Assembly (NCBI GenBank): GCA_964398185.1
Contig: CAYNML010000025.1
Location: 4,031-68,030, forward strand
Reading direction: 5' to 3'
Length of the DNA: 64,000 bases
Origin: an uncultured Anaerolineae bacterium
GTDB lineage: Bacteria > Chloroflexota > Anaerolineae > Fen-1058
Shown in pieces: positions 16,467 through 64,000 of this stretch. Each line of letters opens with the position of its first letter. Within the stretch, counting starts at the first letter, position 1. The position numbers were made by a program, and so were the translations under genes. The notes below the pieces were generated by a model. That model worked only from the letters and a program-made list of their open reading frames with translations. It ran no database searches and was not told where the DNA came from.

Positions 16467-16487
16467 CCTCACGCATTACGCATTACG
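16467..16487. repeat. Heptamer tandem repeat (CCTCACG)(CATTACG)(CATTACG)
   Basis: 7-bp period NNNNACG x3 immediately upstream of ATG 16493 (within 6 nt). Same family as the arrays at 36677 and 62825. Confidence 0.6.
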
Positions 16488-34479: not shown

Positions 34480-34552
34480 GGTGCCTGTAGCTCAATGGCA
34501 GAGTACTGGACTGTGGATCCAGGCGTTGCGGGTTCGACCCCCGTCAGGCACC
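34480..34552 (+). tRNA. tRNA-His (anticodon GTG) with encoded G-1
   Basis: Acceptor GTGCCTG/CAGGCAC with an extra 5' G, anticodon stem CTGGA/TCCAG with loop CTGTGGA, T-arm GGGTTCGACCCCC. Immediately downstream of hisS. Confidence 0.8.
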
Positions 34553-34566
34553 CTTAACAATGAACA

Positions 34567-34613
34567 ATGCTCAATGACCAATGAACAACTCGGTCGTTGA
34601 GCATTTTCGTTTA
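34567..34613 (+). terminator. Rho-independent terminator after tRNA-His
   Basis: 12-bp stem ATGCTCAATGAC ... GTCGTTGAGCAT followed by TTTTCGTTT. Its 5' arm and loop are built from 7-bp NNCAATG repeats (34556-34590). Confidence 0.6.
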
Positions 34614-34679: not shown

Positions 34680-35150
34680 ATGACTGAACCCAAATTGAAA
34701 CTTGGCGATCCTGCGCCCGATTTCACTCTGGCCGACGATCAGGGCAAAACTGTGAAGCTGTCCGATTATCGCGGCCAGCGCGTCGTGGTGTATTTCTACC
34801 CCAAGGATGACACGCCCGGCTGCACCACGCAATCGTGCGGCTTCCGCGACAATTATCCGGCCATTCAAGAGAAGAACGCGGTGGTGCTGGGCATCAGCCC
34901 CGACGATCAGAAATCGCACGTGAAATTCAAGAGCAAGTTCAACCTGCCCTTCACGCTGCTGTGCGATGTCGATCACACCGTGGCTGAGACTTACGGCGTG
35001 TGGGGCGAGAAGTCGCTGATGGGCAAGACGTACATGGGCATCATCCGCAGCCACTTCGTTGTTGATGAAAACGGCCAGTTGATCGACGTGCAATACAACA
35101 TCAAGCCGGAAGCGAGTGTGGCGGGGGCGCTGGAAGTCATTCGTCGTTAG
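34680..35150 (+). CDS. bcp: Peroxiredoxin Bcp (thiol peroxidase, AhpC/TSA family)
   Basis: [13 protein letters not shown]... is the Bcp signature with the peroxidatic Cys. 156 aa. Confidence 0.85.
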
Positions 35151-35178
35151 TCGTTGGTTGTTGGTTGTTGGTTGTTAG
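35151..35178. repeat. Heptamer tandem repeat (TNGTTGG)x3 + TTGTTAG
   Basis: tcgttgg ttgttgg ttgttgg ttgttag directly after the bcp stop codon. Confidence 0.6.
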
Positions 35179-36644: not shown

Positions 36645-36676
36645 AACAAAACGCGCCCTGAATCTTCATTAACCCA

Positions 36677-36718
36677 GAGCACGCATTACGCATCACGTTT
36701 TACGCATCACGCATCACG
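36677..36718. repeat. Heptamer tandem repeat (NNNNACG)x6: GAGCACG CATTACG CATCACG TTTTACG CATCACG CATCACG
   Basis: 7-bp periodic array in the convergent 3' intergenic region between the SCP2 gene and ftsK. Confidence 0.6.
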
Positions 36719-36720
36719 TT

Positions 36721-39021
36721 CTACAGCCACCCATCGACCTCATCATTCGGCCCGATGAGCACATCGCGCGCGCGGCCTGCTTCCTGCACCGGCCCCACGA
36801 TGCCCATCTGCTCCATGCGATCGATCAAGTACGCGGCCTTGGGATAGCCCAGGCGCATCTTGCGCTGCAACCACGAGGCGCTGGCCTGGCGATGCTTCTT
36901 CACCAACTCGATTGCTTTGGCCAGCAGCACTTCATCGTCGTCTTCCAACGCGGCCGTCGCTGCGCCCGCCTGTGCAATCTCTTCAAGCTGCTGCACCCTG
37001 GTGGTTTCCCACGGCGCGGGCACCCGCTCTTCGTCGGCGTATTGCTTGCGCCAGAAATCGGCCACCCGATCGATCTCGCGCTCGCCCACGTAACAGCCCT
37101 GCACACGCTGCGGGCCGTTAGCTGTCGGTGACAGGAACAGCATGTCGCCCTTGCCCAATAAAGTTTCCGCGCCTACCCCGTCGAGAATGACGCGGCTGTC
37201 CACGCCCGAGGCCACCGCGAACGCAATGCGCGCCGGGAAGTTCGCCTTGATCAAACCGGTCACCACGTCAGTCGAGGGACGCTGCGTGGCGATGACCAGA
37301 TGGATGCCCGTGGCGCGCGCCATCTGCGCGATGCGGCAGATAGTCTTCTCCACCTCCACCGGCGCGCTCATCATCAAGTCCGAGAGTTCGTCGATGAACA
37401 CCGCCATGAAGGGCAGCTTGTCCTGCCCCTGCTCCGCCATCTGCGCGTTGTATTCGTTGACGTGGCGCACGCCCAGGTCCGAGAACTTCTTGTAGCGGCT
37501 GTCCATTTCGCGCGTGACCCAGCGCAGCACGCCCACAATGCGCTCGACCTCGGTTTCCACTTTGCCGTACAGATGCGGCAAGCCGTTGTAGCGGATCAGT
37601 TCCACCATCTTGGGATCGATCATCACGAGGCGCAGATCGTCGGGCGTATTGTCCATGATCAGCGACATGATGACGGCGTTGATGCACACGCTTTTGCCGG
37701 AACCCGTCGTCCCCGCGATCAAGATGTGCGGCATCGAAGCCAGATCGGCGGCGATGGGCATCCCGCTGACATCGCGCCCCAGCGCAAAAGCCAGCGGCGC
37801 TTTGGCCTTCAGCTTGCCGAAAGATTCGCTCTCCAGCACGCCGCGCAGACCCACCATTTCGATCGACTCGTTGGGGACTTCGATGCCGACGAACGATTGA
37901 CCGGGCACCGGCGCTTCAATGCGCAGCGACGGCGCGGCCAGCGCCAGCGCCAGATCGTTTTGCAGCGAGCTGATCTGCGCCACGCGCACTTTCTGGCGGC
38001 GCACCTCGCCTTCGGGGCCGGGCCGTTCGAGGTAACCCGGCTCAACGCCGTACTGTGTCACCGCCGGGCCTTGCGACACGCGCACGACTTTCGCCTCCAG
38101 ACCAAACTGCCGCAGCGTGCTTTCGATCACATCTTTCTTGTGCGCGATTTCCTCCTGCGCGATCGACTCGCTGGTATGGCCTTCCAGCAGATCGAGCGTG
38201 GGCAGCGCGCGCACTTTCTTGATCTTCGGCAGGGGAACCTCTTCGGTTTTGACGATCTTCAACGGCAGTTGGGTGGCTTGCACCGGCTGCTGATCGAGCG
38301 ACTTGGCCTTGATGACCACTTGCTGCGGCGGCACAATCTCTTCCTCGATCGGTGGGGCGGCGGCCGACGGCCCCGCCTCGCTGATCGTGGGGACTGCCAC
38401 CGTTTCGATCGGGCGGCGGCGCACCCGCCAGATCTTCAGGCGCGCGTACCACGTCAGCCACGGCAGACGCAGGCCGATCGTCAACGCGACGATCGTGACG
38501 ATCAAGTACAACACCCCGGCCACATACCGTGGGAAGATTGGCGTGACGATCATGAGCAAGCCCCAGCCCACCACGCCGCCGCCATTTCCGGCGGTGATCC
38601 TGCTCCACATATCCTGATCAGAATAAGCGCCGAAGGCCGTCAGGACAGGCAGAAACGCGAAGAACGCCACCTCAACCGCGATGACGGATTTCCACGGCGT
38701 GACCAGCACGATGTTCTGTGTGCGCGCAATGATCAACACACCAATCGCGCCGAGTATGAAGGCGAAGAGAAATGCCCCCCAGCCGAAGAGCCAATAGAGG
38801 CCGTTGCTCCACCACTCGCTGAGGCTGCCCGGGGTATCGAAGCGCGACAGCGCGACGAGCGACCACACGGCCAGCGCCATGAGCAGCACGCCCAGGATCT
38901 CGCGGCTGCGCACGCCCACGCGGTAGCGCAGTTGGCGGCGGCGCAGCGGCGGTGCTTTCTCGGTTTTTGCTTTGGCTTTCGCGTCCGCTGTGGCGCGGCT
39001 CGCATTCGCGGATTTGGTCAT
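36721..39021 (-). CDS. ftsK: DNA translocase FtsK/SpoIIIE
   Basis: N-terminal multi-TM region, motor domain with Walker A GTTGSGKS, and a C-terminal gamma winged-helix domain. Confidence 0.9.
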   Translation of the reverse strand: MTKSANASRATADAKAKAKTEKAPPLRRRQLRYRVGVRSREILGVLLMALAVWSLVALSRFDTPGSLSEWWSNGLYWLFGWGAFLFAFILGAIGVLIIARTQNIVLVTPWKSVIAVEVAFFAFLPVLTAFGAYSDQDMWSRITAGNGGGVVGWGLLMIVTPIFPRYVAGVLYLIVTIVALTIGLRLPWLTWYARLKIWRVRRRPIETVAVPTISEAGPSAAAPPIEEEIVPPQQVVIKAKSLDQQPVQATQLPLKIVKTEEVPLPKIKKVRALPTLDLLEGHTSESIAQEEIAHKKDVIESTLRQFGLEAKVVRVSQGPAVTQYGVEPGYLERPGPEGEVRRQKVRVAQISSLQNDLALALAAPSLRIEAPVPGQSFVGIEVPNESIEMVGLRGVLESESFGKLKAKAPLAFALGRDVSGMPIAADLASMPHILIAGTTGSGKSVCINAVIMSLIMDNTPDDLRLVMIDPKMVELIRYNGLPHLYGKVETEVERIVGVLRWVTREMDSRYKKFSDLGVRHVNEYNAQMAEQGQDKLPFMAVFIDELSDLMMSAPVEVEKTICRIAQMARATGIHLVIATQRPSTDVVTGLIKANFPARIAFAVASGVDSRVILDGVGAETLLGKGDMLFLSPTANGPQRVQGCYVGEREIDRVADFWRKQYADEERVPAPWETTRVQQLEEIAQAGAATAALEDDDEVLLAKAIELVKKHRQASASWLQRKMRLGYPKAAYLIDRMEQMGIVGPVQEAGRARDVLIGPNDEVDGWL

Positions 39022-58722: not shown

Positions 58723-58741
58723 AATGCACTTGCCTATTGTA

Positions 58742-58808
58742 GGGCAAGATGGTATCTTGCCCACGTCAGCCGTAACGCAAGATGGTATGGTGCGCGAGCG
58801 AGATGGTA
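58742..58808. repeat. REP hairpin GGGCAAGAT-GGT-ATCTTGCCC plus two further direct copies of the (C)AAGATGGTAT motif
   Basis: Perfect 9-bp stem at 58742-58762, with motif copies at 58778-88 and 58798-808, upstream of the RAYT gene. Confidence 0.6.
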
Positions 58809-58833: not shown

Positions 58834-59484
58834 TTGAGCAACCTCGCCTATCAATTCTTCTACCGCCGGCGCCTGCCGCACTACCAACCACCGGGTGCGA
58901 CGTTCTTCATCACCTTTCGCCTGGCAGGATCACTGCCCCAAGAAGTGATTCAACAGCTCGTCGCAGAAGCCAGGCGCATCGACGAACAACTGGCACGCAT
59001 TCTAGATGTGCAGGAACGTGAACGGCAAGCCTACCGGGAGCAGCGGCGCATGTTTGGCAAATGGGACAAATTGCTGGATACTTCTACTACCGGGCCGCAC
59101 TGGCTTAAGCAAGCTGACATTGCGGCGCAACTGGCCGATAGTCTGCACCAGCGCGACCAGCGGGTGTATGATTTGCACGCGTTTTGCATCATGCCTAATC
59201 ACGCGCACGTGATCTGTCATCCCTTGCTCAAATCCGACGGCGCTTATCATGCTCTGTCGTCTATGCTGCATTCGCTCAAGCGTTACACTGCCGAAGAAGG
59301 CAATCGGCTACTGGGGCGCACGGGGATTTTCTGGCAGCATGAGAATTACGACCACGCGGTGCGCAACGAGGCCGAATGGCGGCGCATCATCCGGTACGTG
59401 GTCGGCAATCCAGTCGCAGCGGGTCTCGTCGAACGCGCGGCGGACTGGAAGTGGTCATACTGCAAATACGGATTGGAGCTGTAG
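58834..59484 (+). CDS. REP-associated tyrosine transposase (RAYT; IS200/Y1-transposase-like)
   Basis: HUH motif MPNHAHVI and catalytic Tyr region FWQHENYDHAVRN match the RAYT/Y1_Tnp signature. Flanked by REP hairpins. Confidence 0.75.
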   Translation: MSNLAYQFFYRRRLPHYQPPGATFFITFRLAGSLPQEVIQQLVAEARRIDEQLARILDVQERERQAYREQRRMFGKWDKLLDTSTTGPHWLKQADIAAQLADSLHQRDQRVYDLHAFCIMPNHAHVICHPLLKSDGAYHALSSMLHSLKRYTAEEGNRLLGRTGIFWQHENYDHAVRNEAEWRRIIRYVVGNPVAAGLVERAADWKWSYCKYGLEL

Positions 59485-59525
59485 CGCAAGTTGTTAACTT
59501 GCGCGCGCAAGATGACATCTTGCGC
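59484..59525. repeat. Two REP hairpins GCGCAAGTT-GTT-AACTTGCGC and GCGCAAGAT-GAC-ATCTTGCGC
   Basis: Perfect 9-bp palindromes immediately after the RAYT stop and 10 nt upstream of the moeA start. Confidence 0.65.
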
Positions 59526-62288: not shown

Positions 62289-62816
62289 ATGCGCATCAGA
62301 GTCCGCCTGATCTTTGCCGCACTAGCACTTGTCGCGTGCCAGTCGCAAGGCATTGATACATCCAACGCGGCCAAATTCAAGTTGAGCAGCCCGGCCTTTC
62401 AAGACAGCGGATCGATTCCACAAAAGTTCACGTGCCAGGGCGACAACGTTTCGCCGGAATTAAACTGGAGCGCAGCCCCAACCAGCACCAAGAGTTTCGC
62501 GCTCATCATGGACGATCCCGATGCGCCCGGCGGCGCCTTCACGCACTGGGTGTTGTTTGATGTGCCCGCCGATCAACAGCAGCTGGCGGAAAACACCAGC
62601 CCGATCGGGATCGGCGGCAATAACGGTCTCAGCCAGACAGGCTACATGGGACCCTGCCCGCCGAGCGGCATCCATCGCTATTACTTCCGGCTCTACGCGC
62701 TGGACGTTTCTTCACTGAATTTGAAAGCGGGCGCGGCTCGCGGCGAAGTCGAAGCTGCGCTGAAAAATCACATCATCGGCGTGGCCGATACGATGGGGCG
62801 CTACGAACAACAGTAA
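62289..62816 (+). CDS. YbhB/YbcL family PEBP (Raf-kinase-inhibitor-like) lipoprotein
   Basis: Signal peptide with lipobox LVAC and PEBP motifs (DPDAP, HWVLFD, GPCPPSGIHRYYFRLYALD). Confidence 0.75.
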   Translation: MRIRVRLIFAALALVACQSQGIDTSNAAKFKLSSPAFQDSGSIPQKFTCQGDNVSPELNWSAAPTSTKSFALIMDDPDAPGGAFTHWVLFDVPADQQQLAENTSPIGIGGNNGLSQTGYMGPCPPSGIHRYYFRLYALDVSSLNLKAGAARGEVEAALKNHIIGVADTMGRYEQQ

Positions 62817-62824
62817 GGGTTGTT

Positions 62825-62901
62825 GATTACGCCTTACGCCTTACGCCTTACGCCTTACGTTTTACGTTTTACGTTTTACGGTTTACGGTTTACGCTTTAC
62901 G
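62825..62901. repeat. Heptamer tandem repeat array (NNTTACG)x11: GATTACG (CCTTACG)x4 (TTTTACG)x3 (GTTTACG)x2 CTTTACG
   Basis: 77-bp perfect 7-bp periodicity, from 9 nt after the PEBP stop to ~30 nt before the aminotransferase start. Confidence 0.8.
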
Positions 62902-62931
62902 TTTCACTCATCACTCTTCAAAGGATCAATC

Positions 62932-64000
62932 ATGCCCGTCTCCTCAATGTCTTCCGAAGAAATGGTCGCCCTGAGCAAACAGTACACGTTCTGGTCGTGG
63001 TCGGCGCAGGACAGCGTCAACCCCATCCCGCTGGAGCGCGCCGAGGGCATTTACTTCTGGACGCCCGACGGCAAACGCTACATCGATATGAACTCGCAGT
63101 TGATGTGCGTCAACATCGGCCACGGGAACAAGAAAGTGATTTGCGCCATTCAAGACCAGGCGGAGAAGTTGGCCTACGCCGGCCCCAGCATGGCGAGCGA
63201 GGTGCGCGCAAAGATTGGGCCGCTGCTGGCGAAGCACACGCCGGGCGATCTGAACAAGTTCTTCTTCACGCTCGGCGGCGCGGAAGCGAACGAGAACGCG
63301 ATCAAGTTGGCGCGGCAGTTTACAGGGAAGCAGAAGATCATCACGCGCTACCGATCGTATCACGGCGCGACGGCGGGCGCTATAACGCTGACGGGCGATT
63401 ATCGCCGCTGGGCCAATGAGCCGGGCATCCCCGGCGTGGTGCGCGTCTTCGATCCGTACAAGTATCGCTGCACGTTCTGCAAGAATAATCCCGGCGGCTG
63501 CACCATGGACTGCCTCAATCACATCGAGGAGGTGATCCAGTACGAAGGGCCGCACACCATCGCCGCGCTGTTCATCGAGACGGTGACGGGCACCAATGGG
63601 TTGATCGTGCCGCCCGACGGTTATCTACAGGGTCTGCGGCAGTTGTGCGACAAGTACGGCATTCTGCTGGTGTGCGATGAAGTGATGGCGGGCTTTGGCC
63701 GCACGGGCGAATGGTTCGCCGTCGATCACTGGAACATCGTGCCGGATATCATGACCATGGCAAAGGGTCTGACCTCGTCGTATCTGCCGCTGGGCTGCGT
63801 GGCGATGAACGGCAAGATCGCCGATTACTTCGGCAAGAATGTGTACTACGGCGGCCTGACGTACAACGCCCACCCGATGAGCCTGGCCGCCGCCATCGCG
63901 ACGATCGAAGTGATGGAAGAAGAGGACATCGTGGGCAATGCCAGGCGCATGGGCCAGGTGATGGCGGCGCTGCACGACGATCTAAAAGCGGAACATGCTT
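62932..64000 (+). CDS. Class III (omega) aminotransferase, 3'-partial
   Basis: PLP class-III motifs (...FTLGGAEANENAIKLAR..., ...DEVMAGFGRTGEWFA..., ...MAKGLTSSY... with the Schiff-base Lys). RBS AAGGAT before ATG 62932. Runs off the window end, so it is absent from the ORF track. Confidence 0.8.
   Translation, partial: MPVSSMSSEEMVALSKQYTFWSWSAQDSVNPIPLERAEGIYFWTPDGKRYIDMNSQLMCVNIGHGNKKVICAIQDQAEKLAYAGPSMASEVRAKIGPLLAKHTPGDLNKFFFTLGGAEANENAIKLARQFTGKQKIITRYRSYHGATAGAITLTGDYRRWANEPGIPGVVRVFDPYKYRCTFCKNNPGGCTMDCLNHIEEVIQYEGPHTIAALFIETVTGTNGLIVPPDGYLQGLRQLCDKYGILLVCDEVMAGFGRTGEWFAVDHWNIVPDIMTMAKGLTSSYLPLGCVAMNGKIADYFGKNVYYGGLTYNAHPMSLAAAIATIEVMEEEDIVGNARRMGQVMAALHDDLKAEHA

Follow-up and report, generated by a model that had tools for sequence, protein, structure and literature searches.

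Heptamer array between a PEBP gene and an aminotransferase gene

The window (i.e. the whole stretch of DNA that was analysed, 64,000 nt in length) belongs to a Thermoflexales (Chloroflexota) MAG of 5.58 Mb in 147 contigs with a G+C content of 60.7%. Near its end, a tandem array of 7-nt units is located between two genes:

62289..62816 (+), PEBP/PBP-family gene (PF01161), with a TAA stop 8 nt 5' of the array
62825..62915 (+), lone YDTYACK array of 11 NNTTACG units and two NNTCACT units
62916..62931 (+), short leader from the array to the aminotransferase ATG, with an AAGGA Shine-Dalgarno-like site
62932..64000 (+), class-III aminotransferase gene (PF00202), extending beyond the window end and named taurine--2-oxoglutarate transaminase in public sources

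An earlier note on this DNA, made from the sequence alone, had described arrays at 62825-62901, 36677-36718 and 16467-16487. The unit sequences of all three were exactly as described, as were the flanking genes (i.e. PEBP, aminotransferase, SCP2, FtsK and a gene without a Pfam match). The stretch from 62825 to 62901 consists of 11 perfect NNTTACG units (i.e. GATTACG, four CCTTACG, three TTTTACG, two GTTTACG and CTTTACG), and period 7 runs on past 62901 with TTTCACT and CATCACT as far as 62915, giving 13 units in total. TRF reported a period of 7, 10.7 copies, 94% matches and a score of 87. The YDTYACK sequence is on the sense strand of both neighbouring genes, an inverted partner is absent, and this is the longest lone array of the YDTYACK family in the genome. 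Arrangement in blocks of identical units, including rare ones, is unusual within the family and suggests a recent local expansion. The array ends 16 nt before the aminotransferase ATG, and a sequence shared by four genomes, TCACTCATCACYC..CAA.GGA, covers the last array units (from about 62904) and the leader.

As RNA, the array folded no better than shuffled sequences (z = +1.34). The spacer between the PEBP and aminotransferase genes was scanned for promoter-like and terminator-like sites and compared to Rfam, with no site or match being found. The array follows the PEBP stop codon and precedes the ribosome-binding site of the aminotransferase, i.e. it lies in neither a promoter spacer nor a reading frame. 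A promoter reading was ruled out by the lack of a promoter-like site, and there is consequently no such site in this spacer for unit number to retune. A CRISPR was also ruled out, in agreement with that note, as the units are contiguous and of 7 nt as compared to repeats of 24-48 nt with unique spacers.

Other arrays and features of the window

Further heptamer arrays are present in the window:

36677..36718 (-), six-unit array between SCP2 and ftsK, with CGTGATG/CGTAAAA on the ftsK sense strand
16467..16487 (+), YDTYACK array of three units that stops 5 nt short of the ATG in the gene without a Pfam match
34556..34588 (+), CAATGAN array directly 3' of tRNA-His (34481-34553), forming the 5' arm of a hairpin (fold z = -4.87)
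35135..35178 (+), TNGTTGG array of six units, the first of which is the TAG stop of bcp (AhpC/TSA)

The array at 36677-36718 starts 2 nt after the ftsK TAG stop (36721-36723), and its last unit is part of a 14-bp hairpin to which the SCP2 3' end also contributes. This hairpin (36650-36683, minus strand) is located between the SCP2 stop and the ftsK array, has a fold z of -4.5 and is kept in a relative of the same genus (G001); it is likely to be the shared terminator of the convergent SCP2 and ftsK genes, with the last array unit in its stem. None of the three arrays described in the earlier note has a partner arm.

A different type of repeat was also observed in the window. An ORF at 58834-59484 (+) matched the NCBIfam REP-associated tyrosine transposase (RAYT) with 85.4 bits (cut-off 80) and had no Pfam match. 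It is flanked by GCAAGAT...CTTGC-type hairpins (near 58723-58790 and 59484-59525) that are not heptamer-periodic, and the orthologous junction in G001 is 28 nt long with one similar hairpin. This region thus looks like a RAYT/REP insertion.

Abundance and composition of heptamer arrays in the genome

A scan of the whole genome with TRF and a periodicity filter detected 518 heptamer-based arrays covering 18.3 kb, as compared to 4 to 89 arrays for base periods of 5, 6 and 8-11 in the same scan. A simple periodicity scan, for which 106 N-run artefacts were removed before counting, produced 166 arrays of period 7, 37 of period 14 and at most 17 for other, non-multiple periods. The majority of the 518 arrays (453, 87%) are outside genes, with coding sequence making up ~81% of the genome; the coding fraction and gene positions were derived from a rough in-house gene caller with starts re-picked by codon score, and positions are approximate. 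Arrays are ~5-fold enriched at contig ends, with 14 being within 100 nt of an end, and one Logan contig terminates within the junction array, so that 518 is a lower bound.

At least seven heptamer families occur in the genome, of which seven account for 395 arrays (TYACG, 132; TYACT, 95; CAATG, 66; GATT[TG], 45; GTTGG, 27; GGGAT, 18; GGATG, 12). TYACG and TYACT belong together in a single family of about 227 arrays, the largest of all, comprising 833 units of 65 kinds with the consensus YDTYACK. Positions 3, 5 and 6 are T, A and C in 98% of units each; variation is between C and T at position 1, A, G and T at position 2, T and C at position 4, and G and T at position 7. Adjacent units are more often unlike (487) than alike (119), which causes many TRF calls at period 14. 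Four consecutive TYACGNN units were matched 261 times in the genome and the same pattern read backwards only five times.

These data refine the picture given in the earlier note. A dispersed family with a conserved core was recovered, but the core is YDTYACK with G or T in the last position rather than ACG alone; equally, the repeats are dispersed but do not constitute a private three-locus family, being instead part of ~227 arrays in one of several heptamer families. The note had named chance local duplication as the outcome that would overturn it, and the genome-wide counts contradict that outcome.

Approximately 65 arrays lie in frame within long ORFs, and those hosts that were checked encode MutL, PurL, NuoG and a PMT-family glycosyltransferase. 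Presence in housekeeping genes fits a genome-wide process followed by selective filtering. Three adjacent arrays are located in the interdomain linker of MutL (contig C7, 86749-88629), three in the PurL part of PurS-PurL (C54, 21482-24334), and one within the molybdopterin domain of NuoG (C4, 73751-76081); the glycosyltransferase host is on C87 (5788-8691). These in-frame arrays encode 7-residue repeats (e.g. GIRDQGS and KSKIQNP).

Hairpins of fixed polarity

The earlier note missed two properties of these arrays, namely that most of them form hairpin arms of fixed polarity and that their orientation depends on the nearest gene end. At least two complementary motifs were present within 70 nt on the 5' side of 150 of the 227 family arrays and on the 3' side of five, indicating that most arrays of the family are one arm of a hairpin. 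On either strand, the build is 5'-(MGTRANN)n-loop-(NNTYACK)n-3'. A regular-expression count found 163 loci of this polarity in the genome and four of the opposite polarity; across 41 genomes (this genome and 40 relatives), there were 840 and 23 pattern matches, respectively. Arms contain 3-4 units and the median stem has 20 paired bases, with arm length, loop and unit mix being variable. The first (MGTRA) arm carries TAA or TGA in each unit and hence stops in all three frames.

Examination of the 163 hairpins revealed no conserved flanks or ends and no target duplications. A mobile unit of the REP or MITE type was ruled out, as conserved ends and a fixed length are both lacking. In one relative (G013, contig C17, 29179-29325), an MGTRA-type array precedes a TYACT-type array, as is usual, and the two are not complementary, indicating that the orientation rule holds even where no hairpin can form.

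Orientation of arrays relative to gene ends

Sense and antisense counts of arrays are equal when position is ignored (55:52 and 45:40), and this equality hid the orientation rule until position was considered. In spacers between genes of the same direction, the stop codon of the upstream gene is included in or adjacent to 73 of 92 arrays that have MGTRA as the sense sequence (TAA, 53; TGA, 18; TAG, 2) as compared to 3 of 100 that have YDTYACK. Conversely, the distance from the array end to the next start is 0-30 nt for 51 of these 100 YDTYACK arrays as compared to 9 of the 92 MGTRA arrays. The median distance from a YDTYACK array to the downstream start is 17-23 nt; lone MGTRA arrays lie at a median of -4.5 nt from the stop, and lone YDTYACK arrays are separated from the start by a median of 19 nt. 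The rule was followed by arrays between convergent genes at a ratio of 8:0 and between divergent genes at 10:2. Expressed for RNA, MGURA repeats come after coding regions and UYACK repeats before them. All three arrays of the earlier note obey this rule, two being YDTYACK arrays before a start and the third reading CGTGATG 2 nt past the ftsK stop.

Shine-Dalgarno sites occur downstream of arrays at a frequency of 40%, close to the genome average of 38%, indicating that arrays do not replace ribosome-binding sites. A terminator reading was ruled out for the junction array, and the hairpins in general are not canonical terminators: the junction spacer has no terminator-like site, T-rich tails follow only 3% of YDTYACK-on-sense arrays and hairpins are scarce between convergent genes.

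One further placement concerns the single rnc (RNase III) gene of the genome (contig C5, 102203-102892). A lone TYACG array of six to seven units (102154-102197) fills the 55-nt spacer upstream of rnc and ends 13 nt before the ATG; related hairpins resemble RNase III substrates.

Variation of arrays among relatives

Unit number at the PEBP/aminotransferase junction differs between genomes of the genus, in line with the unit-number variation considered in the earlier note, with 13 units here, six in G004 (three ACG units and three CACT units) and none in G001 and G003. The PEBP stop and aminotransferase start are separated by 10 nt in G001 and overlap in both G003 and another relative, L107; L107 also lacks an array, and two others (L106 and L108) have short spacers without arrays. 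With the array and short flanks removed, the junction aligns to that of G001, showing that the array is an insert of ~104 nt that separates the stop codon of PEBP from the ribosome-binding site of the aminotransferase. The closest relative of the aminotransferase (94% identity) has a 105-nt spacer. In two more distant genomes (G013 and L002), the aminotransferase leader contains three or four NTCACTC units, and the two units beside the ribosome-binding site are conserved in at least three genera. The start-proximal part of the array is therefore old, being common to distant genomes, and the distal ACG part is young. In L108 (ENA contig_148705, 701-2317), the PEBP and aminotransferase genes were called as one fused ORF of 538 aa, in which the PEBP part looks frameshifted, possibly by an assembly error.

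Other arrays of the window vary similarly. The SCP2/ftsK site of G001 has about six units in which the core is kept and the variable bases are changed, and the six-unit TNGTTGG array at bcp corresponds to about three degenerate units in G001.

The 13-unit array is unchanged in three JGI metagenome contigs; as these match the window with 100% identity over 2-3.2 kb, they derive from the same strain, making this a weak test of length stability. No sign of switch-like length variation was seen in this comparison of three assemblies of one strain. A metagenome scan for the exact pattern of the shared leader retrieved no matches.

Four consecutive TYACGNN units were present in 19 of 21 genomes of the same family (up to 261 matches). 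Of 19 other families of the class, 8 had this pattern, and a phylum-wide sample of 300 genomes included 25 with it. The equivalent CAATGAN pattern hardly occurs outside the genus. The reversed control pattern matched many times in some other Chloroflexota, indicating that other heptamer units are used there.

S23p genes enclosed by heptamer arms

Some genes for S23p (rRNA intervening-sequence protein), a pentameric four-helix-bundle protein homologous to the Avd protein of DGRs, are enclosed by inverted heptamer arrays in this genome. The following S23p genes have such arms:

contig C44, flanking inverted unit TAGTGGN
contig C39, flanking inverted unit GGGATCA
contig C80, flanking inverted unit CAATGAT
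contig C74, flanking inverted unit of GATTT type
contig C33, flanking inverted unit AGTAAYG
contig C45, flanking inverted unit GTGCGTG, with CACYACG arms close to the YDTYACK family

Twelve PF05635 matches were obtained, ten strong and the two weakest beside reverse transcriptases. A uniform test (i.e. flanking arms that are inverted, 7-nt periodic and 18 nt or longer) was passed by five of the 12 matches (five of the ten strong ones) as compared to two of 400 control small genes (Fisher P = 1.7e-7). The arms of a sixth gene (C74) were seen by TRF but failed this test. Among relatives, 9 of 20 S23p genes passed in one set (G001, G020 and G039) and 15 of 20 in another (G018, G021 and G014), with a different unit each. 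The CAATGAT, AGTAAYG, GGGATCA and GATTT-type units are those of families abundant throughout the genome. A search for exact TYACG arms at S23p genes yielded none, and no PF05635 ORF lies in a loop at the three sites of the earlier note.

Copy number of S23p and TYACG array count correlated across 41 related, non-independent genomes (rho 0.59) and not significantly within the family (rho 0.28), which is weak evidence either way. For example, G013 has 177 TYACG matches and one weak S23p match, G001 has five TYACG and 16 S23p matches, and G039 has 223 array matches and no hairpins.

Other PF05635 loci differ in their surroundings. S23p genes on C9, C22 and C66 have inverted arms that are not 7-periodic, those on C9 and C66 appearing by eye to have a period of ~15-16 nt. 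The two weak, Avd-like matches (C75, 3002-4504; C63, 29662-30836) adjoin reverse-transcriptase genes and have no heptamer arms; their gene content suggests two diversity-generating retroelements with avd genes.

Probable origin and effect of the junction array

We consider that the junction array, a lone member of the YDTYACK family, has recently expanded, arose by slippage under a filter on placement and is probably near-neutral (probability of about 0.65). The best-supported explanation thus assigns it to the known heptanucleotide repeat class, shaped by slippage and placement selection. Slippage during replication, in steps of 7 or 14 nt, would lengthen and shorten arrays, and those whose position harms a neighbouring gene would be lost. 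The MGTRAHR strand, having TAA or TGA in every unit, is turned towards upstream gene ends and in most cases provides the stop codon, and this stop-rich strand may overlap a gene end without lengthening the protein. The YDTYACK strand, whose commonest units contain no stop or start codon on inspection, is turned towards downstream starts and may precede a ribosome-binding site without creating false starts. Where both kinds of array occur together, they form hairpins of ~20 bp with one fixed polarity, and S23p genes are enclosed by the same build. At the PEBP/aminotransferase junction, the array would act as an unstructured, U/C-rich insert of ~100 nt whose likeliest effect would be to separate translation of the two genes, and it is probably near-neutral at this site.

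A tolerance filter of this kind explains the orientation rule and predicts the observed polarity in every gene arrangement. Between species, arrays change length in whole units. The filter leaves the narrow, conserved unit set unexplained, and a specific binding protein or an S23p-linked origin may therefore be involved. Slippage from chance seeds does not account for the dominance of few units or for the presence of the TYACG core throughout most genomes of the family and in scattered other Chloroflexota. The excess of unlike over alike adjacent units indicates that simple one-unit slippage is not the whole process. At the SCP2/ftsK site, retention of core and unit number in G001 despite changes in the variable bases hints at constraint on the core, and the two conserved units beside the aminotransferase ribosome-binding site could, from their sequence conservation, reflect function.

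In another proposal, the arrays and hairpins would stem from S23p-containing elements of the rRNA intervening sequence (IVS) type, each S23p gene being placed between inverted arrays of a 7-nt unit of its own. Under this proposal, hairpins lacking an ORF and arrays with one arm would be copies that are non-autonomous or decayed, standing to S23p as REPINs do to RAYTs, and the junction array would be a one-armed remnant that expanded later. We regard such descent as unlikely, despite the excess of heptamer arms at S23p genes over control genes, the similar results in relatives, the membership of four flanking units in abundant families, the resemblance of the C45 arms to the YDTYACK family and the homology of S23p to Avd. 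Parallels exist in the Coxiella IVS, in which heptamers precede an S23p ORF and the stem is cut by RNase III (PMC4990558). Exact TYACG arms were not found at any S23p gene, arms and loops are variable without the conserved ends or target duplications of copy-and-paste elements, the numbers of TYACG arrays and S23p genes diverge in G013 and G001 and are not significantly correlated within the family, G039 has abundant arrays and zero hairpins, and no activity is known for S23p. The extension of this proposal to the heptamer arrays and hairpins in general, whereby they would be ORF-less progeny of S23p (Avd-like) elements of the IVS type and each paralog would recognise or propagate a 7-nt unit of its own, in the manner of RAYT and REPINs, is improbable.

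Among the other alternatives, the array could be a functional 5' leader, i.e. an unstructured, pyrimidine-rich platform for S1 or cold-shock-domain proteins that raises or tunes translation of the aminotransferase. Ribosomal protein S1 and cold-shock-domain proteins cover about 6-7 nt per domain. The short distance of YDTYACK arrays to starts, a strand choice that also holds in divergent spacers, and, at the aminotransferase, the conservation of start-proximal units across genera and the lack of RNA structure are consistent with this role; a similar proposal exists for Beggiatoaceae TAACTGA repeats (PMC4679880) and a Nostoc preprint describes regulatory effects of heptamer repeats. We nevertheless judge it improbable, as close relatives do without the array and have abutting or overlapping genes, the unchanged Shine-Dalgarno frequency shows that ribosome-binding sites are not replaced, and the similar behaviour of many different units argues against one specific binder. 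A contingency locus, in which frequent gain and loss of units would switch or tune the adjacent gene within a population, is far harder to sustain. Unit number does differ between species, the blocks of identical units point to recent slippage and assemblies are interrupted within arrays (e.g. the Logan contig and the 14 arrays near contig ends), but the 13-unit array was identical in three metagenome assemblies, albeit of the same strain, the array is outside any promoter spacer or reading frame, and the ~520 arrays lie beside housekeeping genes and not the typical surface or virulence genes. That the three arrays of the earlier note are unrelated chance duplications can practically be dismissed; beyond the small size of the arrays at two sites, nothing favours it, and it conflicts with the 518 arrays of the genome, the 261 matches as compared to five for the control and the presence of the core in relatives. 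A near-neutral array, generated by slippage and retained by a placement filter, remains the preferred reading.

Implications

These repeats provide a clean and countable case, having a family-wide core, a polarity of 840:23 and an orientation that is predictable from the nearest gene end. The enclosure of S23p genes by the same build ties heptamer repeats to rRNA intervening sequences. From the array rules, predictions that can be tested follow for RNA processing, translational coupling and the function of S23p. Annotation is affected because gene callers extend ORFs through the stop-free strand and because arrays provide the stop codon of at least 73 genes, and assembly is affected by breaks inside arrays. 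If true, the reading of arrays as S23p progeny would supply both a function for the orphan S23p family and a mechanistic reason for the 7-nt peak of bacterial long simple repeats.

Comparison with known repeat systems

Short tandemly repeated heptamers (STRR) have reportedly been known since 1990, when Mazel et al. are said to have described them in heterocystous cyanobacteria as dispersed intergenic arrays of few unit types (e.g. CCCCAGT); we know of no function for them. The arrays studied here are likewise dispersed, intergenic, built of few unit types and found in a filamentous lineage. The resemblance to STRR with a different unit drawn in the earlier note therefore stands at the level of the heptanucleotide class; units of YDTYACK, CAATGAN and other types and occurrence in another phylum make them an analogue and not a member of STRR. 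REPs are abundant intergenic palindromes consisting of fixed-length units with a conserved head, and a RAYT gene is flanked by its own repeat type. The hairpins of this genome are similarly abundant and intergenic, often lie between genes of the same direction and include partner genes flanked by their own repeats. They differ in having variable arm lengths, loops and unit mixes without conserved ends, and the RAYT gene of the window is associated with different repeats.

TAACTGA repeats of marine Beggiatoaceae, cyanobacteria and Bacteroidetes contain stops in all frames on one strand (MacGregor 2015, PMC4679880). Many of these repeats are just upstream of starts or overlap upstream stops, and binding of S1, Csp or CsrA has been proposed (PMC4679880). 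In the genome of that study the stop-bearing strand faces the downstream start, whereas here the stop-free strand does so and the stop-bearing strand faces upstream gene ends; furthermore, only one inverted set was reported for that genome as compared to 163 hairpins here. The GGGAATC/GGGGAYT heptamers of Xanthomonas and Nostoc are G-rich and able to form quadruplexes (Rehm et al. 2015, PMC4692102). Shared features are an intergenic location, presence between the same gene pairs in related species, strong variation in length and sequence, and some inverted copies (PMC4692102). Unlike these repeats, YDTYACK cannot form quadruplexes, and GGGATCA is a minor family in this genome.

In the Coxiella IVS, strain-variable tandem heptamers precede an S23p ORF (Warrier et al. 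2016, PMC4990558), and terminal inverted repeats pair into a 28-bp stem that is cut by RNase III (PMC4990558). The enclosed S23p genes described here share this build, in which terminal inverted repeats pair as a long stem with the S23p gene inside its loop, together with tandem heptamers. In contrast to the Coxiella IVS, these elements are located between protein genes instead of within rRNA, an ORF is absent from most hairpins and the junction array is one-armed, neither two inverted arms nor an S23p ORF in a loop being present at the three sites of the earlier note.

The closest correspondence is with heptanucleotide LSSRs. As far as can be taken from later accounts, heptanucleotides have been recognised since 2007 as the commonest class of bacterial long simple repeats (Mrazek et al. 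2007, via PMC4679880, PMC4692102). The same accounts describe tandem 7-nt units with an over-representation of period 7, a mainly intergenic location and a scattered distribution across phyla, and give polymerase slippage as the proposed source (Mrazek et al. 2007, via PMC4679880, PMC4692102). Our literature search on heptanucleotide tandem repeats in Chloroflexi returned no paper. Tandem heptamers beyond chance, an excess of period 7, a mainly intergenic location and copy number variation between relatives were all observed here, as for LSSRs, but the arrays of this genome are distinguished from them by a narrow unit repertoire, a family-wide core, a fixed hairpin polarity and a rule of orientation set by gene ends.
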